A stretch of DNA of 64,000 nt from Candidatus Dadabacteria bacterium (GCA_951812945.1 CATOTB010000001.1:488198-552197); one strand, 5' to 3'. Numbered from the stretch's first letter, positions 16,807-55,373 are shown. Numbers and translations are program-made. The notes: a model not told the origin generated them from the sequence alone.

Positions 16807-16814
16807 TAAATTTG
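16807..16814. repeat. 8-bp direct repeat TAAATTTG (putative target-site duplication, left)
   Basis: identical 8-mer immediately outside both terminal IRs. Confidence 0.5.
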
Positions 16815-16845
16815 GGGAATTATAAAGGAAAGTTGACAAAACTTC
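16815..16845. repeat. terminal inverted repeat (left) of the IS1595-family element
   Basis: 31/31 match to the reverse complement of 21812-21842. Confidence 0.7.
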
Positions 16846-16854
16846 GTAACTCAC

Positions 16855-17025
16855 TCATTTGACTTCAACAATTTTTGGGTTGCCTTTGCTGTCTTTTTGG
16901 AGGGAAAATCGGCGTTCTAAATCCTCTTTTTTCGGCTTCTTCGGACGCTCATGCTTTACCGGTCCCATGCCGAGCAATAGCTTGGCAGCCTCGTCTACCT
17001 GGTCCCATTCATCTTTCTTGCTCAT
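16855..17025 (-). CDS. small hydrophilic Lys-rich protein, 56 aa (below the ORF-track cutoff)
   Basis: hand translation MSKKDEWDQVDEAAKLLLGMGPVKHERPKKPKKEDLERRFSLQKDSKGNPKIVEVK; third in a co-oriented run of tiny ORFs. Confidence 0.35.
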   Translation of the reverse strand: MSKKDEWDQVDEAAKLLLGMGPVKHERPKKPKKEDLERRFSLQKDSKGNPKIVEVK

Positions 17026-17034
17026 TTGGTCTAC

Positions 17035-17283
17035 CTAAACTACATAAGACATTATGATTCCTGCGATAATCCCGCCCGTAAGGAGAATTAGGGGCCATGC
17101 TATTCCTATCGCAAGCACTGCGAGCATGTACAAAACGAAGCCCACGCCGAAGACTACCATGAGGGTTTGCTCAAAGCCTTTGTTTTCACCCCGCTGTTGG
17201 CGTTCCCAGTCCCTTCGCTTGGCGTTCCGCTTCAGGAGTTTCTGTCGCTTCTCATGCTCTTCCCATGTAAGTTTGCTTGCCAT
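17035..17283 (-). CDS. 82-aa small membrane protein (basic N-terminus, C-terminal TM hairpin)
   Basis: ORF with a Lys/Arg-rich N-terminal 40 aa followed by two hydrophobic helices. Confidence 0.45.
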   Translation of the reverse strand: MASKLTWEEHEKRQKLLKRNAKRRDWERQQRGENKGFEQTLMVVFGVGFVLYMLAVLAIGIAWPLILLTGGIIAGIIMSYVV

Positions 17284-17286
17284 CGT

Positions 17287-17505
17287 CTAAATTTCGACTA
17301 TTTCTTCCAAGCCCTCTCTGTGTGCCTTAATCTGGTCTTCAAACTCTTGGTTTGTAACTCTGTCCAGTATTTGCCCAATCTGAATCTGTCCTTTTGCCAG
17401 TCCTTTAATGCCAGACTCAATTCTGTCAAAGCGTTTGGTGAACTTCTCATCCAGTTCGTTTATTGCATCTAATACTTTTTTGTTATCGTCGTGAATGATT
17501 GACAT
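17287..17505 (-). CDS. 72-aa small acidic coiled-coil protein
   Basis: ORF; TATAAT box about 35 nt upstream on the minus strand; spaced 4 nt from the next ORF. Confidence 0.45.
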   Translation of the reverse strand: MSIIHDDNKKVLDAINELDEKFTKRFDRIESGIKGLAKGQIQIGQILDRVTNQEFEDQIKAHREGLEEIVEI

Positions 17506-17666
17506 GGTATTCTTGTCTCTGACACAGTTCTCTTATCTGTAATTATAGCCGGCAAAATTGGAACTGTCTGAGATTTGTTCCCCCTATTTTGGTTTTTCAG
17601 ATACGGAAACCATACCTGATTTTGCCGGCAAATTCAAGGTGTTAGAACCATCATTCTACTTCTACC

Positions 17667-18152
17667 TTACCGACTGCAAGTCCCACCTAAAAGGCTATCG
17701 TAGAACGAACTGCGACGGCAGGAAAGTTCAGGGTAGTCATCTGCACTGAAACCCTCGAAAGCTACCGTCCTTCCAGAAGCTAGCGACCAAGTGGCAAAGT
17801 AATTTCTAGACGGAAAGTCCATTGAGAGTCCGACGTATTCGTCTCCATACTGGTCTCGGTAGCCTGCTAGCATCCATGTTCCACTGGTTGTCCTGTCGTC
17901 AAAAAAATCCGTCAAGTAGGCGGCAACTGTACCGTCTTCGCAGAAAGCAAGGGCTTCATATACATCTTCGTCGTCACTACAGCTCCATATACCACTTCCC
18001 TGGATGAGAATCGCTGTGAGTTGAGCAATATCAGCGAGAGTCTCTTCACTCTCTCCTCCAGTTATTTCAGAAAATCCATCTGGAAGGTTATCTCCTCCCC
18101 CGCAACTGGTAACAAACACTAATACCAAGAAAAGAGACAAAATCGTCCTCAT
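17667..18152 (-). CDS. acidic Cys-containing lipoprotein, hypothetical
   Basis: lipoprotein signal LVFVTSC at the N-terminus. Confidence 0.6.
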   Translation of the reverse strand: MRTILSLFLVLVFVTSCGGGDNLPDGFSEITGGESEETLADIAQLTAILIQGSGIWSCSDDEDVYEALAFCEDGTVAAYLTDFFDDRTTSGTWMLAGYRDQYGDEYVGLSMDFPSRNYFATWSLASGRTVAFEGFSADDYPELSCRRSSFYDSLLGGTCSR

Positions 18153-18305
18153 AACATCCTCCTAAGTTTGGATTTGACCTCGGCAAAAAAGGGTGCCGGG
18201 CCTTGCTTACAACCAAAGAGACTTTGGACGTTCTGCTTATTTCCCAGACGGGTATTGTATTCACAGAGACCCGACAGGGCGGGTTCTCTTCAGTTGTAAG
18301 CAATT

Positions 18306-18334
18306 TTGACTATATCACAGAAGGGCGGTATAAT
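18306..18334 (+). promoter_or_regulatory. near-consensus sigma70 promoter TTGACT-N17-TATAAT driving the S1 protease gene
   Basis: hexamers and 17-nt spacer read directly. Confidence 0.5.
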
Positions 18335-18402
18335 CTATGAAAGTTTTAATCTTGTGAAACACCCCCTGCCGAGTACATTCTCCAAATTTGGCAAGTAAAA
18401 AA

Positions 18403-19212
18403 ATGAAAAGACATCTAATTATCGCAATTTTGGCAGTAATTCTTGTGGGAATTTATGCAGTGTTGCTACACGGAGAGACAAAGACACAAGCACGTGAAAT
18501 CCCAACCTCAAATATTCTGAACAGGATTCTCCCAATAAGAGTTGAGGTTAAAGAAGAATCTACTTTTAGAATTAACGAGGGAACAGTTTTCACAATAGAG
18601 GTGGATGGAAGACAATACTTGATAACTGCGAAGCATGTAACCAACCATCAAGCGGTGGAAGTGATAGAGATTTGGAGAAATGGTGGATGGACAGCAGTAA
18701 AGGTAAAAACCGTAGGAGTAGGGAAAGGAAATGAGGACATTATTGTATTAGCCGCAGATGAGAGACTAACTACCACCTTTGAAATAGAAATAGGGAGTGG
18801 CGGGATAGTATTAGGTCAAAATGTAAAATTCTTGGGATTCCCTCTCGATATTGAAGTATATATGACCCAAGCTAAGGAATGGAGAGTGCCTGTCGTAAAA
18901 GGCGGTATCCTTACCACAATTGAATCTGAGAAAGGCTCGTCCTGGTTGCTGGTAGACGGGCATGGCAACAAAGGATTTAGCGGAGGACCTGTAATATTCA
19001 AGCCACGTGAAGAAAACACTAAAACATGGAGGATTGCTGGAGTAATAAGCAGGTTTGAACCAGAAATCTTGTCTGTGATAGATAGCACAGGGAGAAAGAT
19101 AGAAGGCTTAGGGGTTGTAGGAAACTCCGGCATTATGGTGGCAACAGGAATTGAAGCAGCTTTGAAGCTAATTAAAGCAAACCCCATAGGATATCTCGTT
19201 AAAGAAAAGTGA
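18403..19212 (+). CDS. membrane-anchored trypsin-like (S1/chymotrypsin-fold) serine peptidase
   Basis: N-terminal TM anchor; catalytic His context TAKHV and Ser motif GFSGGPV; the track ORF begins at an upstream TTG (18388) and ATG 18403 is more likely. Confidence 0.7.
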   Translation: MKRHLIIAILAVILVGIYAVLLHGETKTQAREIPTSNILNRILPIRVEVKEESTFRINEGTVFTIEVDGRQYLITAKHVTNHQAVEVIEIWRNGGWTAVKVKTVGVGKGNEDIIVLAADERLTTTFEIEIGSGGIVLGQNVKFLGFPLDIEVYMTQAKEWRVPVVKGGILTTIESEKGSSWLLVDGHGNKGFSGGPVIFKPREENTKTWRIAGVISRFEPEILSVIDSTGRKIEGLGVVGNSGIMVATGIEAALKLIKANPIGYLVKEK

Positions 19213-19250
19213 ACGAAAGCCTAACTTACTAATATGACTAAACAATCTAC

Positions 19251-19258
19251 CCCCCCCC
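19251..19258 (+). repeat. homopolymeric C tract (C8 by the coordinate grid) in the 5' region of the methyltransferase gene
   Basis: read directly; lies between an upstream ATG (19235) and the conserved MTase N-terminal region. Confidence 0.6.
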
Positions 19259-19310
19259 TAAATCTAACTGGAAAGACAAGACAGTTTTTACGGGAGACAA
19301 TCTCCCCATA

Positions 19311-20480
19311 ATGCGCAGGATGAATTCCGACTGCGTAGACCTGATTTACTTAGACCCCCCTTTCAACAGCAAAACAAACTATGCTGCACCTATTGGTAGT
19401 CATGCGGCCGGTGCCGAGTTTAAGGATACTTGGACTCTCTATGACATAGATATTGTCTGGCTTGATTTACTTGAAGCCAAGCATCCAGCACTCAATCGAG
19501 TTATTCACGCTACTTTGACCAAGAGTGATAAATCTTATCTGATTTACATGGCGATTAGGTTGCTGGAAATGAGGCGGATACTGAAACCGGCCGGAGGCAT
19601 TTATCTTCACTGTGACCCAACAATGAGTCACTATTTGAAGCTGGTAATGGATGCTATATTCGGAAGAGAGAATTTTAGAAATGAAATTATTTGGGCTTAC
19701 ACGGGGCCAGGGTCTCCCAATATGAGGCAGTTTAACCGCAAGCACGATGTGATCTTCTGGTACTCAAACGGTGAAGACTGGACATTTAATGGGGATGCTG
19801 TTCGAGTATTGCATAAAAAACCTATTGGGGCTGGAGGCACATCTACAAAATGGCTGAAAGAGAAAGAAGATTTGGCGGAAAAATACAAAGGCGGGAAGAT
19901 TCCCGAGACATGGTGGACGAGGTTTTCTCCTGTCGGAAGGATTAAGGGAGAACGCACTGGTTATCCCACACAGAAACCGAGAAAGTTGTTAAAGCGAATA
20001 ATTGAAGCTAGTAGTCCAAGAGGGGGCATTGTATTTGACCCATTCTGTGGTTGTGCTACGACCTGCATAGCCGCAGAGGAATTAAACCGGCAATGGATAG
20101 GAATTGATATCTCGCCCAAAGCGGCGGAACTTGTACAAACCAGAATACTGAATGAACTAGGTTTTGCTGGACGTGAACATCAGATAATTCACCGCCAGGA
20201 CATTCCACAGAGAACAGATTTAGGAGAGATTCCAAAGTACAACTGTAAGGAGAACAAGAACAGATTGTATGGAGAGCAAGGTGGGCATTGCAACGGATGC
20301 AGAGAACACTTCCAAATGCGTCATTTAGAAGTGGACCACATCATTGCTCGCTCACAGGGTGGCACAGACCACATTGAGAATTTGCAAATGCTCTGTGGAA
20401 ACTGCAATCAGATTAAAGGCAATCGTGGACACGAGTACCTGTTGGCAAGAATGGAAGGGAGAAAAGTACCCTACGCATGA
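19311..20480 (+). CDS. beta-class DNA methyltransferase (DPPF motif IV preceding FDPFCG motif I) fused to a C-terminal HNH endonuclease domain
   Basis: DLIYLDPPF, FDPFCGCATT, then HLEVDHIIARSQGGTDHIENLQMLCGNCN; the conserved N-terminal region extends upstream of ATG 19311 and is frame-linked to ATG 19235 only if the C tract changes length. Confidence 0.85.
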   Translation: MRRMNSDCVDLIYLDPPFNSKTNYAAPIGSHAAGAEFKDTWTLYDIDIVWLDLLEAKHPALNRVIHATLTKSDKSYLIYMAIRLLEMRRILKPAGGIYLHCDPTMSHYLKLVMDAIFGRENFRNEIIWAYTGPGSPNMRQFNRKHDVIFWYSNGEDWTFNGDAVRVLHKKPIGAGGTSTKWLKEKEDLAEKYKGGKIPETWWTRFSPVGRIKGERTGYPTQKPRKLLKRIIEASSPRGGIVFDPFCGCATTCIAAEELNRQWIGIDISPKAAELVQTRILNELGFAGREHQIIHRQDIPQRTDLGEIPKYNCKENKNRLYGEQGGHCNGCREHFQMRHLEVDHIIARSQGGTDHIENLQMLCGNCNQIKGNRGHEYLLARMEGRKVPYA

Positions 20481-20492
20481 CCAAACTACGAA

Positions 20493-20741
20493 TCAGTAAA
20501 AAAACTTTGCAGTTAAAATTCCAGAAATTACACCGATAGCTATAGCTGGCCATTTATCAAGAAAATAAGCTTTTAGACTGGGATATGCAGATGCCCTTTT
20601 TTCTAACCACCAAATTATAATCCAAACTATGCCAACGATACCAAGAACTTCCCGTGCCTCGATACTTGAAAAAACTTTTGAAAGGAGATACGCCGCTGCG
20701 AAAGAAACTAGGAACTGCCTGAATGTAGGGAGATGATTCAT
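20493..20741 (-). CDS. 82-aa small membrane protein, hypothetical
   Basis: ORF with 2-3 hydrophobic helices. Confidence 0.35.
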   Translation of the reverse strand: MNHLPTFRQFLVSFAAAYLLSKVFSSIEAREVLGIVGIVWIIIWWLEKRASAYPSLKAYFLDKWPAIAIGVISGILTAKFFY

Positions 20742-20764
20742 TTTCTGTTCACAAAAGCGGAGGT

Positions 20765-21697
20765 CTAAGAAGTCAGTTTTTCAAAGGTAATGGTCTTGCC
20801 CACCATAGCACCGAACAGGGCGTTCAGTCTATCTTCTGTATCAACCTTGCAACTTCCTTCGCTCAAACGAAAAGCGAACTCGTTGATATAGGCACGCATG
20901 TGCTTCTTACTCCAGTTGTGGTAAACGCCGTTGTATCCACGCTTCATGACCGCCCATACGCTTTCAATCCCGTTGGTAGAAGCCATGCCATTTACGAATT
21001 CTTTCGCTGAATGATTGACTGTTCCGTGTTCAAAATCCTTCCCGAGTAATCCGCTATAGCCTTTATGTTCATCCGTAAACACGATGGAACCCTTAACGAC
21101 ATTTTCGCTTATCTCTCTTTCGAGGGTTTCCGCGTCCCGTCTTTCAATAGGAATTGCCTTAGTCTTGCCGCCACGTTCTCTCATGCCGAGTACGCAGGTC
21201 TTTCCAACAGGTCCACGTCCGGCGTGAAGCTTCTTGGATTCGTGTTTGTTTTTTTCGAGACCTCCCAGAAAAGTTTCGTCTATTTCCACAACTCCCTTCA
21301 AGGCTTCCATATCGCTTCCGCAGGCAAGACGCAGACGGTGAAGCATGTACCAAGCAGTGGGTTGGGAAACAGCCAGTTCCTTGCTTAGCTGGAGACTGCT
21401 TATGCCCTTTCTGGCTGTCATTAGCAGATAAGCGGCGAATATCCACTTGCGAAGGTCAATCTTTCCATACTCAAGCGGAGTTCCGGTGCGAGCGGTGAAA
21501 TACTTGCGACAATTCCCGCACCAGTAACGTCCAGGGTGTTTGAATTGAGGGGTGATCTTCTCGGTGCTACCGCACCTTGTGCAGTGCCTCTTGTTACCCC
21601 ATCTCTGATTCTCAAGATACTTGATAGCATCTTCCTCAGTAGGATATTTCTGCATCAACTCGAACAAGCTGATTATCTTTGCATGTTTCTTTTTCAT
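20765..21697 (-). CDS. IS1595-family (ISXO2-like) transposase with N-terminal zinc ribbon
   Basis: CxxC...CxxC zinc ribbon (HCTRCGST...WCGNCRKYF) followed by a DDE ISXO2-like domain; 310 aa. Confidence 0.85.
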   Translation of the reverse strand: MKKKHAKIISLFELMQKYPTEEDAIKYLENQRWGNKRHCTRCGSTEKITPQFKHPGRYWCGNCRKYFTARTGTPLEYGKIDLRKWIFAAYLLMTARKGISSLQLSKELAVSQPTAWYMLHRLRLACGSDMEALKGVVEIDETFLGGLEKNKHESKKLHAGRGPVGKTCVLGMRERGGKTKAIPIERRDAETLEREISENVVKGSIVFTDEHKGYSGLLGKDFEHGTVNHSAKEFVNGMASTNGIESVWAVMKRGYNGVYHNWSKKHMRAYINEFAFRLSEGSCKVDTEDRLNALFGAMVGKTITFEKLTS

Positions 21698-21811
21698 GAT
21701 GGTATAAGATACCTGAAAAAGAAGGGTTTGTCAACTCTTGTTCCTGTTTTTTAGGAGAGTTCTCAGTGACTTAGATATTTCTTGATTCTAGCTTCGGAAA
21801 TGGGTTCAATA

Positions 21812-21842
21812 GAAGTTTTGTCAACTTTCCTTTATAATTCCC
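21812..21842. repeat. terminal inverted repeat (right) of the IS1595-family element
   Basis: exact reverse complement of 16815-16845. Confidence 0.7.
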
Positions 21843-21850
21843 TAAATTTG
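21843..21850. repeat. 8-bp direct repeat TAAATTTG (putative target-site duplication, right)
   Basis: identical to 16807-16814. Confidence 0.5.
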
Positions 21851-22077: not shown

Positions 22078-22109
22078 TAAATTTAGGTAATTACCCCTAT
22101 AACTAGCCA
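22078..22109. repeat. 32-bp perfect inverted repeat, copy A (23 bp upstream of the IS256-like transposase fragment)
   Basis: TAAATTTAGGTAATTACCCCTATAACTAGCCA is the exact reverse complement of 22505-22536. Confidence 0.7.
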
Positions 22110-22444
22110 AAAGTAAAATGAGGGAGCGGTTGCTGGAGGACGGCACTGTCCTTGGTGTTTTTTGTATAATATTCGAGTGTTTTTGGATCTAATAGGGGGG
22201 GTGTATAGACTTAAGTTTACAAGTCCTCCAAACCCTGTATCGCTTCCTCGAACCCGCGGTGTAGTGCTTTAAATTCCAAGAGCCATCTTACCCCGGCGAC
22301 ATTTTTGCTTCTCGTGGAAGCAGGTAATTCATCGGACTGAATTCATGTTGGGGAGGTTTGAGAGTTCCATTTACTCGAGTGGAGCAGGGGAGGCTTATTA
22401 GGACCAACCGTTCTGTATCATCCTGAAATAACTTAGTATTTACC

Positions 22445-22474
22445 TTGACAAACAGTTAGACAGAAATATAGAAT
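22445..22474 (+). promoter_or_regulatory. putative promoter TTGACA-N18-TAGAAT inside the IR-bounded 395-bp segment, facing the 22571 ORF
   Basis: hexamers read directly. Confidence 0.3.
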
Positions 22475-22504
22475 TACCGTTAAGTACTATTATGATGGAG
22501 CAAG

Positions 22505-22536
22505 TGGCTAGTTATAGGGGTAATTACCTAAATTTA
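22505..22536. repeat. 32-bp perfect inverted repeat, copy B
   Basis: exact reverse complement of 22078-22109. Confidence 0.7.
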
Positions 22537-53836: not shown

Positions 53837-55373
53837 ATGCACGAGGAAACGGAGTTCAAGCTCTCCCTTTCGCCCGCAGTGGCGAATCGGATTTTGCGTT
53901 ACAAGGGACTCAGGCCCCACCGCAAGGGCCGCCGTGTAAAGCACCGTTTAGTAAGCACCTACTTCGATACTCCCCGCCACGCGCTAAGAAAATCCGAGAT
54001 AGTGCTTAGGGTGCGCGATAACGGCAAGGGCAGGGAACAGACTGTAAAGGCGCCGTTCCAGGGTCCCGCGGGCCTTCAGAATTTCCGTGAATGGACCGTG
54101 GCGGTAAACGGTGACTGTCCGAATCTTTGTGCCGTGGACGACCCTGCGCTCGCGCGCAAGCTCTCCCGCGGGCGTTACGAAAAGCGCCTAAGCCCTCTGT
54201 TCACCACTGACTTTGAGCGCGAAGCAGTTCGCATAAGGGTCCGGGGCACCGAATTCGAGCTTGCGGTTGATCAAGGGATCATTCGCGCCGAAACGCGCGG
54301 GGGGGACAGTTGAGGAACCCATATGCGAAGCGGAATTCGAACTGCTCTCAGGGGACCCGGCGCGGATGTTCGATGTGGCTCTTGAACTCTGCGAGGCTTA
54401 TGACATACGCCTCGGCCACCTTACCAAGGCGCAAAGGGGCTACGCACTCACGAGACCGGCGCTCCGTCCCAGACCCTGCAAGGCCCCGAAGGTTGTGCTC
54501 ACGGAGGAGATGAGCGTAGGAAAGGCGTTTAACTTCATCATTGCCGGCGCGCTTGAGCACATGTTTGCAAACGAGACCCCGACCCTGGAGGGAAGGGCGG
54601 AGGGGGTCCACCAGACGAGGGTGGCCATGAGGCGCGTGCGCGCGGCGCTTCGGGCTTTCAAGAGAATACTTCCGTACGACAAGCGAAAGGCGTTTAACGG
54701 AGAGTTCCGCTGGTTCCAGCAACGACTGGCCCCGGCCCGCGACTGGCAGGTCTTTTTGAGCGAAACGCTTCCAAAGATAGCCGCTGCCGCTCCCGAGCAG
54801 GAAGAAGCGATAAAGCGCCTTCGGCGCATCGCGCGCGCCGAGCGCCGCCGCGCCGTGGGAGACGCTGCCGCTTACCTTGATAGCCGCCGCTACGCCCGGC
54901 TGCTTCTTCAGTTCGAGCGATGGATCGCGTCTGTGGAGAAGGAGGTCGGCTCAAAGACTTTCGACGAGCCCGTAAAGCCGTTTGCAAGAAGCGTCCTCAG
55001 GAGAACGTGGCGCTATTTCCTTGAGGATACGAGGCCTCTTTCACGCCTTCCTGACGAGGATCTTCACGAAATAAGAAAACGGGGGAAAAAGGCCCGCTAC
55101 GCAACGCAGTTTTTCAACTCGCTCTGGACCGGTTCCCGGGTTCCGCCCTTCATGAAGCTCATGGGACGCTTCCAGGACAGCCTTGGAAAGACAAATGACG
55201 CGATAGTGGCGCGGCACATCCTGGCGGCGGTTAAGCCGGGGAGGCTCGATCCCTCGGTAATCCATCTTGCGCAGGAGTGGTCCCAGGCCCGGGTGAGAAA
55301 ATGCCTTCGCACGGCGCAGCCGCAGTGGAGGCGCCTCGGGAGAGTTGCGCCGTTTTGGGAGGCGGCGGAGTGA
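53837..55373 (+). CDS. CYTH-CHAD domain protein interrupted by a frameshift in a G7 tract (two ORFs: 53837-54313 and 54261-55373)
   Basis: the CYTH domain continues across the frame change (…AVDQGIIRAETRGG | TVEEPICEAEFELLSGD…); CHAD domain in the second ORF. Confidence 0.6.
54299..54305 (+). repeat. homopolymeric G7 tract at the CYTH-CHAD frameshift site
   Basis: read directly. Confidence 0.7.

Follow-up and report, generated by a model that had tools for sequence, protein, structure and literature searches.

A cytosine tract in the leader of a transposon-borne methyltransferase-HNH gene of Candidatus Dadabacteria as a putative phase-variation switch

Introduction

A gene of Candidatus Dadabacteria that encodes a DNA methyltransferase fused to an HNH domain raises the question of whether its 5' end holds a switch: the conserved N-terminus of the product is encoded upstream of the first in-frame ATG, and between that segment and a further upstream ATG, set in another frame, lies a run of cytosines. 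A sequence-only reading of the locus had taken the run for a likely phase-variable ON/OFF switch on a mobile element, sequenced in the OFF position. To our knowledge, nearly all phase-variable DNA methyltransferases described so far come from host-adapted pathogens that can be cultivated. Here the whole 64,000-nucleotide stretch of DNA (hereafter the window) was analysed together with relatives of the gene from other genomes. The host is a chromosome of Candidatus Dadabacteria, with a DnaE that shares 91% identity with that of a named Dadabacteria MAG; there are also strains at 97-99% identity. Judged from sequence and from the comparison with relatives, the tract, which is nine cytosines long, is probably a slipped-strand ON/OFF switch, i.e. 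a contingency locus, sequenced in a putatively OFF state.

Results

Tract, start codons and reading frames

Counting by script gave nine cytosines at 19250-19258 on the plus strand, where eight (19251-19258) had been read, and located the upstream ATG at 19234-19236 instead of 19235. Upstream, it is the TAA at 19239-19241 that closes the methyltransferase frame, and not a TGA at 19236-19238 as had been thought; the frame is open from 19242, and no ATG, GTG or TTG occurs in it between 19242 and the ATG at 19311, leaving the conserved N-terminal segment (19266-19310) devoid of a start codon of its own. With nine or twelve cytosines, the frame of ATG 19234 yields a leader peptide of 25-26 codons, and in the C9 state its stop (TAA 19309-19311) shares bases with the ATG at 19311-19313 as TAATG. 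The stop immediately after the tract that the earlier description had assigned to the sequenced state belongs to C8, since with eight or eleven cytosines this frame ends directly past the tract as an 8-9-codon peptide. With seven, ten or thirteen, a single ORF of 414-416 codons results, MTKQSTPP(P)KSNWKDKTVFTGDNLPIM..., also written as MTKQSTPP(P)KSNWKDKTVFTGDNLPIMRRMNS..., so the frame arithmetic agrees with the proposal that 7 or 10 C would fuse the upstream ATG to the full methyltransferase. The tract, the upstream ATG and their frame relation are thus as the sequence-only reading had them, with the count, the coordinates (off by one) and the account of the OFF frame corrected. The features are listed in Table 1.

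Table 1. Features of the methyltransferase-HNH locus and of the element that carries it (coordinates of the window)
Feature	Position	Strand	Remark
Left 8-bp target-site duplication TAAATTTG	16807-16814		identical octamer flanks both element ends
Left terminal inverted repeat (GGGAATTATAAAGGAAAGTTGACAAAACTTC)	16815-16845	+	resembles terminus GGGACTTATATATAATACTTGACAA of the L083 cassette
Three small cargo ORFs	17035-18152 (17035-17283, 17287-17505, 17667-18152)	-	from ORF list
Trypsin-like peptidase cargo gene	18403-19212	+	Pfam Trypsin_2; start picked from translation
Upstream ATG	19234-19236	+	would start full-length methyltransferase-HNH at C7, C10 or C13
25-codon leader ORF of C9 state (MTKQSTPPLNLTGKTRQFLRETISP*)	19234-19311	+	first stop at codon 25
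Open methyltransferase-HNH frame	19242-20480	+	N6_N4_Mtase 19335-20135, HNH 20289-20426
C9 homopolymer, putative slippage tract	19250-19258	+	script count
ORF of public annotation, P0001, 389 aa	19311-20480	+	lacks conserved strand 1 and helix 1
IS1595-family DDE transposase	20765-21697	-	Pfam DDE_Tnp_IS1595 (4.5e-41) and Zn_ribbon_IS1595
Right terminal inverted repeat	21812-21842	-	paired with left arm
Right 8-bp target-site duplication TAAATTTG	21843-21850		same octamer as left

The repeat unit of one nucleotide is not a multiple of three, and the tract sits between a start codon and the functional domains, where its length toggles the frame. In the field, a mononucleotide tract counts operationally as phase-variable from nine units upwards (REBASE survey, PMC5909438), a length that C9 reaches. 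It is the longest G/C homopolymer and the sole C or G run of at least nine in the window, the runners-up being one C7, at 13818, and two G7, at 22195 and 54299. Shuffled sequences contained such runs at a mean of 0.81 per 64 kb, with at least one in 47 of 100 shuffles, and a C9 run somewhere in 64 kb is therefore not significant by itself; the chance of finding it in the gap of about 30 unconstrained nucleotides from the start codon to the conserved N-terminus was estimated from the shuffles at about 2e-4. A role of the tract as a promoter spacer for ATG 19311 was also considered and rejected, as the scan called no sigma-70-like site near it; the arrangement ATGACT-N19-TAAATC is weak by eye, and a transcript begun there would still carry no start for the conserved N-terminus. 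Comparing the two ATGs by their Shine-Dalgarno sequences was uninformative, the motif being absent from most genes of the window.

The methyltransferase-HNH protein and its N-terminus

Pfam assigns the protein a beta-class N6_N4 DNA methyltransferase domain (PF01555, 1.5e-47) followed by a C-terminal HNH domain (PF01844, 1.5e-13), and from sequence this beta-class enzyme is probably an N6-adenine methyltransferase. PADLOC and NCBIfam models group the methyltransferase part with Type II and Type III enzymes and liken the HNH part to those of IscB and Cas9. The structural neighbours of the AlphaFold model are M.BceJIV, M.RsrI, CcrM and M.MboIIA, none of them a solved structure of such a methyltransferase-HNH fusion. 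The DPPF motif, the FxGxG-like DPFCGCAT, the DH...N...N motif of the HNH domain and four cysteines are shared without exception by 49 homologues and by the window protein; the ORF downstream of ATG 19311 is intact, with 389 codons free of stops and all invariant columns of the 49-sequence alignment kept. The protein is the only member of its cluster, with no second copy in the protein collection and its next homologue 73% identical, and exact-protein look-ups of it and of the upstream peptidase returned no record. Phage and plasmid collections contained no close DNA relatives; the protein matches found there are methyltransferase-only and at most 45% identical, except for Geobacillus virus E3 (28% identity over 96% of the query).

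That conserved sequence lies upstream of ATG 19311, as had been claimed, was borne out by the homologues: about 100 of the 120 best start 29-53 residues ahead of DPPF and encode NW.NKTIWTGDNLPIM, translating an N-terminus of the form NW.(N/D)KT(I/V)(W/F)TGDNLPIM. In the translation from 19242, residues T17, D19 and L21 are invariant in the 49-sequence alignment, the AF2 model shows residues 14-17 as a strand and 20-25 as a helix (pLDDT about 90), the alignment with EcoP15I Mod begins at residue 14, and ATG 19311 corresponds to residue 24. Because homologues, invariant residues and model all include the segment upstream, a product begun at ATG 19311 would be short of a conserved core element, and we infer that it is inactive.

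These observations bear on the idea that protein is made despite the frameshift, by termination-reinitiation at TAATG (giving the 389-aa product), by slippage of RNA polymerase or of the ribosome along the C run, or by weak initiation at ATC 19245, with tract length tuning expression. ATG 19311 is indeed the start chosen by gene callers for the public annotation, but its product would lack the three invariant residues, a core strand and most of a helix. The stop of the C9-frame leader does overlap this ATG, although the overlap follows from conserved Ile-Met codons and is absent in other relatives. As to slippage, a -1 slip on CCC codons would be expected to re-pair perfectly, yet relatives in the OFF state need shifts in both directions and no single slippage mechanism supplies both. 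Shine-Dalgarno motifs are rare in the genome, hence initiation signals are uninformative, which leaves some room for such a bypass; we nonetheless hold it to be very improbable.

The element that carries the gene

The gene is cargo of an IS1595-type element of 5,028 bp (16815-21842), and the claim that it sits on a mobile element was thereby confirmed. The transposase scores 190.7 bits against NCBIfam transpos_IS1595 (cut-off 75), the inverted-repeat arms of 38 nt are 97% complementary (16808-16845 against 21812-21849), and a perfect 8-bp target-site duplication flanks the element; transposase, terminal inverted repeats and duplication together are those of the IS1595 family, for which 8-bp direct repeats have been reported (PMC12561309). 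Given the perfect duplication and the 97% repeats, the insertion appears to be recent. Apart from the methyltransferase-HNH gene, the cargo includes three small ORFs with no match in Pfam, NCBIfam or PADLOC, and the peptidase gene, which ends 22 nt before the methyltransferase start codon and matches weakly, in PADLOC, the protease domains of LmuA, HamA and RT-protease.

Leader repeats across relatives

To compare the leader across the family, one genome per species was scanned, which gave 80 loci (L001-L080) unselected for repeats, nearly all from sponge-symbiont MAGs (Poribacteria, Dehalococcoidia, Acidobacteriota, Alpha- and Gammaproteobacteria, Rhodothermales, Acidimicrobiia and others). 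A simple repeat was defined as a G/C run of at least 8, an A/T run of at least 10, or a unit of 2-9 spanning at least 20 nt. Eight of the 23 simple repeats fell within the 110-nt leader, which makes up 1.7% of the sequence (binomial P=3e-9), and the (GCGACCG)20 array of L019 is a ninth leader repeat beyond these eight. Control scans gave a leader repeat at one of 80 loci in JGI metagenomes, which hold mostly distant, non-sponge relatives and served as control only, and at none of 80 loci in viral contigs. By this sequence comparison, the recurrence of repeats at the leader position is highly non-random.

The list of repeats was widened by homologues whose annotation begins at an internal Met (Table 2). 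The leader repeats comprise C or G runs of 9-15 and units of 4, 7 and 8 nt, all of frame-shifting length. Since both poly-C, which encodes proline, and poly-G, which encodes glycine, occur, the feature is kept at the nucleotide rather than the protein level. The closest repeat-bearing relative of each repeat-bearing gene is about equalled or surpassed in similarity by some repeat-less relative; this scatter among repeat-less relatives implies that the repeats arose independently. The OFF state prevails among tract-bearing relatives, at about two thirds. The notion that every N-terminally truncated annotation marks a frameshift was discarded, because P0028 (L081) and P0043 (L168) just use a TTG start.

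Table 2. Leader repeats of the window gene and its relatives, with the state of the reading frame
Locus	Repeat	State	Remark
Window	C9	OFF	
L007	C9	OFF	
L008	G12	OFF	
L042	G9	OFF	
L013	C14	ON	
L068	C15	OFF	
L083-L085, L087	C10	OFF	
L086	C9	OFF	
L169	C9	OFF	
L133	C9	in frame	
L012	C9 + C11	in frame with distant ATG	
L170	(GCAA)14	OFF	Illumina scaffold
L019	(GCGACCG)20	OFF	
L001	(GCCAGCCC)7	probably ON	
L082	(AGCCCGAC)3		ON/OFF state ambiguous

Homopolymer indels are the typical residual error of long reads, and C9 could accordingly be a miscall in a long-read metagenome assembly, the true tract being C10 (or C7) and the gene intact and ON. A single +1 change restores the methyltransferase frame, related records bear metaMDBG-style long-read contig names, some at 4-15x coverage, and the window has a second G/C-run frameshift, at position 54299 in a gene that is fused in homologues. 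Against this, none of the 38 A/T runs of at least seven in the window breaks a gene, and the frame would be restored by +1 in the window, L068 and L083 but by -1 in L007, L008, L042 and L169, which excludes miscalling in one direction; as a general account of the family, one-directional miscalling was rejected on this ground and because repeats of 4, 7 and 8 nt also occur. OFF states are found with 4-nt and 7-nt repeats as well, including on the Illumina scaffold, and at 1560x coverage in L087, and the allelic gaps of 3-4 nt between tracts of C11, C14 and C15 described below are larger than typical miscalls. We regard a consensus error, the foremost rival explanation, as unlikely, and even with C9 miscalled the tract would qualify as a contingency repeat. 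Both G/C-run lesions of the window, C9 and G7, may equally reflect real instability of G/C tracts.

Tract-length polymorphism among near-identical copies

Tract length also varies between copies of family members that are otherwise nearly the same, at loci other than that of the window. Within one cluster, otherwise identical proteins begin MGIHPPPQFQ... (P0129), MGIHPPPPQFQ... (P0118) and MEGTGRRGLKWAFTPPPPQFQ... (P0130). The corresponding tracts are C11 in three assemblies (L172-L174) and C15 in L171, with 0-1 substitutions over about 1.4 kb, and C14 for P0118 as implied from the protein; reads may be common to the three C11 assemblies, and more than one sequencing platform contributed to the data. 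With C15, the frame of L171 moves to an alternative upstream start. In a second case, two strain contigs from one sample with the same insertion site and about 10 SNPs carry C10 and C9. The three copies of the L083 cassette, on the other hand, all have C10, so the comparison of lengths that had been suggested as a check revealed differences between near-identical copies of two relatives and uniformity in this one.

An explanation by irreversible decay would take the gene for selfish transposon cargo that its host has inactivated, and the tract for an accidental proline-coding run in a neutral leader hit by an indel. In favour of this, the gene is IS cargo with no partner restriction gene, the majority of tract-bearing relatives are OFF, about 6 of the 80 relatives (L007, L015, L025, L056, L076 and L080) have further frameshifts or truncations, and L007 combines its C9 frameshift with a second lesion. 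The window gene, however, retains an intact downstream ORF with all invariant catalytic residues on an element whose perfect duplication and 97% inverted repeats indicate a recent insertion, and long tracts also occur in ON alleles (C14 in L013; L171-L174). Nor does a neutral leader account for repeated G/C runs of 9-15 nt and arrays of up to 20 units, exclusively frame-shifting, within 1.7% of the sequence. We therefore consider decay improbable. For the phase-variable switch that had been proposed, the comparison provides strong support in the independent repeats at the same leader site, the occurrence of both frame states and the length differences between copies, while the details of the OFF frame were amended as given above.

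Discussion

Proposed switch

In the mechanism that we favour, C9 would be a hypermutable simple-sequence repeat placed in the gene's only unconstrained part, which extends from the start codon to where conservation begins, on a 5-kb IS1595-type element recently inserted in the Dadabacteria chromosome. Slipped-strand mispairing during replication would alter the tract length. At C7, C10 or C13, ATG 19234 would be joined to the full-length methyltransferase-HNH (ON), and at C9 or C12 and at C8 or C11 only the longer and the shorter leader peptide, respectively, would be made (OFF). The methyltransferase-HNH family of the gene extends over the phyla of sponge symbionts, and leader repeats have arisen in it repeatedly. 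Slippage and reversibility at the window locus, the activity of the enzyme and any benefit are inferred; the switch might serve to hedge bets on methylation or restriction, or to silence a costly selfish gene.

Comparison with known systems

By analogy, the locus most likely works like phase-variable methyltransferases, with Cj0031 of Campylobacter jejuni as its closest analogue, and is a member of neither the Cj0031 nor the Type III mod family. The Type IIG enzyme Cj0031 fuses restriction and modification and is phase-variable, with a poly-G tract inside its gene (PMC4889913). Both genes join a nuclease and a methyltransferase in one polypeptide and hold, within the ORF, a G/C homopolymer of length around 9 that toggles, or in the window gene would toggle, the frame and with it both activities. 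What defines enzymes of Type IIG/IIL (Cj0031, MmeI-like) is one polypeptide in which an N-terminal PD-(D/E)XK nuclease is combined with a gamma-class N6-adenine methyltransferase and a TRD; Cj0031 is of the gamma class with an N-terminal nuclease of the PD-(D/E)XK type, whereas the window gene combines a beta-class PF01555 domain with a C-terminal HNH (PF01844). Switching, recognition motif and phage restriction have been measured for Cj0031, while the window gene is known from its sequence, and Cj0031, unlike the window gene, does not ride on a transposon.

Phase-variable Type III mod genes include modH of H. pylori, with a G-tract, and modA of Haemophilus and Neisseria, with AGCC/AGTC repeats (REBASE survey, PMC5909438). 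The two groups have in common beta-class methyltransferases homologous to Mod, simple-sequence repeats with units of 1, 4, 5 and other lengths inside the ORF, and many independent origins. A phasevarion is defined by an active methyltransferase with a defined motif, whose switching alters gene expression globally; of this, the window sequence shows the catalytic motifs DPPF and DPFCGCAT. The window protein resembles Mod models and EcoP15I Mod, but its gene has as neighbours the peptidase and the IS1595 transposase and no res, and an HNH domain is fused to it in place of the target-recognition architecture of Mod. Its repeat moreover lies within roughly the first 10 codons, and the hosts of the family are uncultivated sponge symbionts instead of host-adapted pathogens.

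In the classical contingency loci of Haemophilus and Neisseria, tetranucleotide or homopolymer repeats stand just past alternative start codons of genes with surface or LPS functions, in pathogens with small genomes. The window repeat is likewise directly 3' of an ATG, but the gene encodes a predicted DNA-modifying and DNA-cutting enzyme on a transposon of a marine symbiont. Between L171 and L172, start codons in two frames make two of the three tract phases ON, which recalls contingency loci with multiple ATGs.

Mobility of the gene family

Passenger-carrying or transposase-less derivatives of IS1595-family insertion sequences are known, e.g. ISApl4 (PMC12561309). The window element shares with the family the DDE_Tnp_IS1595 transposase, terminal inverted repeats that begin with GGG and 8-bp A/T-rich direct repeats, and differs in its 5 kb with four or five passenger ORFs from the plain insertion sequences of about 0.7-1 kb. 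A 1.48-kb cassette with the inverted repeat GGGACTTATATATAATACTTGACAA occurs in three identical copies, L083, L084 and L085, each flanked by a different 8-bp duplication; in contrast to an IS1595 insertion sequence, the cassette has no transposase and its sole cargo is the methyltransferase-HNH gene. IS1595 transposases lie next to the gene in L081 and L168, and L171 is within an IS1-like element. This mobility matches the published enrichment of restriction-modification genes in sponge symbionts and their lateral transfer among them (PMC8163846).

As a broader and more tentative proposition, which we put forward with less than even confidence, methyltransferase-HNH genes may form a pool of small IS-borne cassettes (IS1595-type, IS1-like and transposase-less mini-elements) that circulates among unrelated phyla in sponge microbiomes and repeatedly gains frame-shifting leader repeats. 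The genes might then represent a mobile, community-shared and stochastically switched module for DNA modification and cleavage, and a first sign of phase variation of the restriction-modification kind as a general strategy of uncultivated marine animal symbionts, beyond the host-adapted pathogens.

Novelty and meaning

The limited set of literature searched contained no earlier account of the methyltransferase-HNH fusion, of repeat switching in such genes, or of phase variation in sponge symbionts or on IS1595 elements. The distribution of the repeats suggests that the contingency logic known from pathogens operates in sponge symbionts too, among Dadabacteria, Poribacteria, Chloroflexota, Acidobacteriota, Proteobacteria and others. 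The type of switch is most likely a well-known one, for which the gene family and the habitat are new. If confirmed, it would offer a testable case of stochastic epigenetic or defence heterogeneity in symbiont populations under heavy phage exposure, would account for the many methyltransferase-HNH genes that pipelines annotate as N-terminally truncated, and would be a warning that what looks like homopolymer 'errors' in long-read MAGs may be real biology. Taken by itself, the window is of modest practical value, and the family-wide pattern is of greater interest than the single locus.

Elsewhere in the window, a CYTH-CHAD gene is split by the G7 run at 54299-54305; each of its homologues is one protein of about 500-520 aa.

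Probable mobile carriers of the methyltransferase-HNH gene in relatives

In three loci of a single metagenome (L083, L084 and L085; ERZ24894576), the methyltransferase-HNH gene lies in a 1.48-kb transposase-less cassette, of which each locus has one copy (1275-2757) identical to the other two. The cassette has the inverted repeat GGGACTTATATATAATACTTGACAA and 8-bp duplications (GCCGAAAC, ATCTCAAT and AAAAAGAA). Since methyltransferase-HNH is its sole gene, the unit resembles an insertion cassette that is mobile, presumably with an IS1595 transposase acting on it in trans. A different element, with an IS1-like transposase and inverted repeats of 35 nt (GGTAGTGAGTCAGTTTGAATTTCGG...), carries the gene in locus L171 (665-3220), where start codons in two frames are found upstream of the C tract.

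In the window, the trypsin-like peptidase (18403-19212) co-transported with the gene on the IS1595-type element weakly matches the protease domains of LmuA, HamA and RT-protease, all of them defence proteins; the whole cargo of this element may be defence-related. About 230 bp past its right end lies a MITE-like element of approximately 459 bp (22078-22536). Its terminal inverted repeats (TAAATTTAGGTAATTACCCCTATAACTAGCCA) match perfectly over 32 nt, and it holds a G7 run at 22195.

Repeats within and beside the methyltransferase-HNH loci

Long G runs internal to the methyltransferase coding sequence form a second class of tract, and they are in frame in all four records that carry them (L016, L018, L072 and L036). 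Three of the four are located around 375-425 nt 3' of the catalytic DPPF motif, in a predicted loop. The leader of the gene in another relative, a MAG (L082, 1409-1440), displays an 8-nt repeat, (AGCCCGAC)x3.5, preceded by ATGAAAAAAGGATAG; the lengths of this repeat and of an A-run would together set the frame.

Long repeats are also found beside the methyltransferase-HNH loci of four relatives (L068, L070, L063 and L040), a hint that contingency genes based on repeats are a more general feature of sponge symbionts. Among them is a repeat that breaks up a large methyltransferase-like gene of the gamma class (motif DFACGTGALL), leaving one ORF of 514 aa and one of 423 aa. Another falls where the signal peptide of a secreted repeat protein ends, and one lies directly 5' of a PhyH-like gene.

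In four further loci (L045, L058, L075 and L077), methyltransferase-HNH paralogues stand in tandem, three or four to an array, approximately 1.25-1.5 kb apart and with identical N-terminal sequences. Such arrays could be a sign that specificity has diversified or recombined.

Positions of repeats and split ORFs
Feature	Record	Position	Location
C13 (G13 on minus strand)	L068	5819	adjoins methyltransferase-HNH locus
C9	L070	4858	adjoins methyltransferase-HNH locus
(CTGACCA)9	L063	6528	adjoins methyltransferase-HNH locus
C12	L040	2106	adjoins methyltransferase-HNH locus
G13	L016	780	within methyltransferase coding region
G15	L018	1736	within methyltransferase coding region
G9	L072	3450	within methyltransferase coding region
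G9	L036	3833	within methyltransferase coding region
CYTH ORF	window	53837-54313	adjoins ppk
CHAD ORF	window	54261-55373	adjoins ppk
G7 run	window	54299-54305	frameshift site between CYTH and CHAD ORFs

A CYTH-CHAD gene split at a G7 run

The CYTH and CHAD ORFs of the window are halves of a single gene, in which the reading frame shifts at the G7 tract. Homologues are fused proteins of 500-520 aa, and a G6 tract would yield a 511-aa CYTH-CHAD protein. The G7 is either a consensus error or a second unstable G/C tract.
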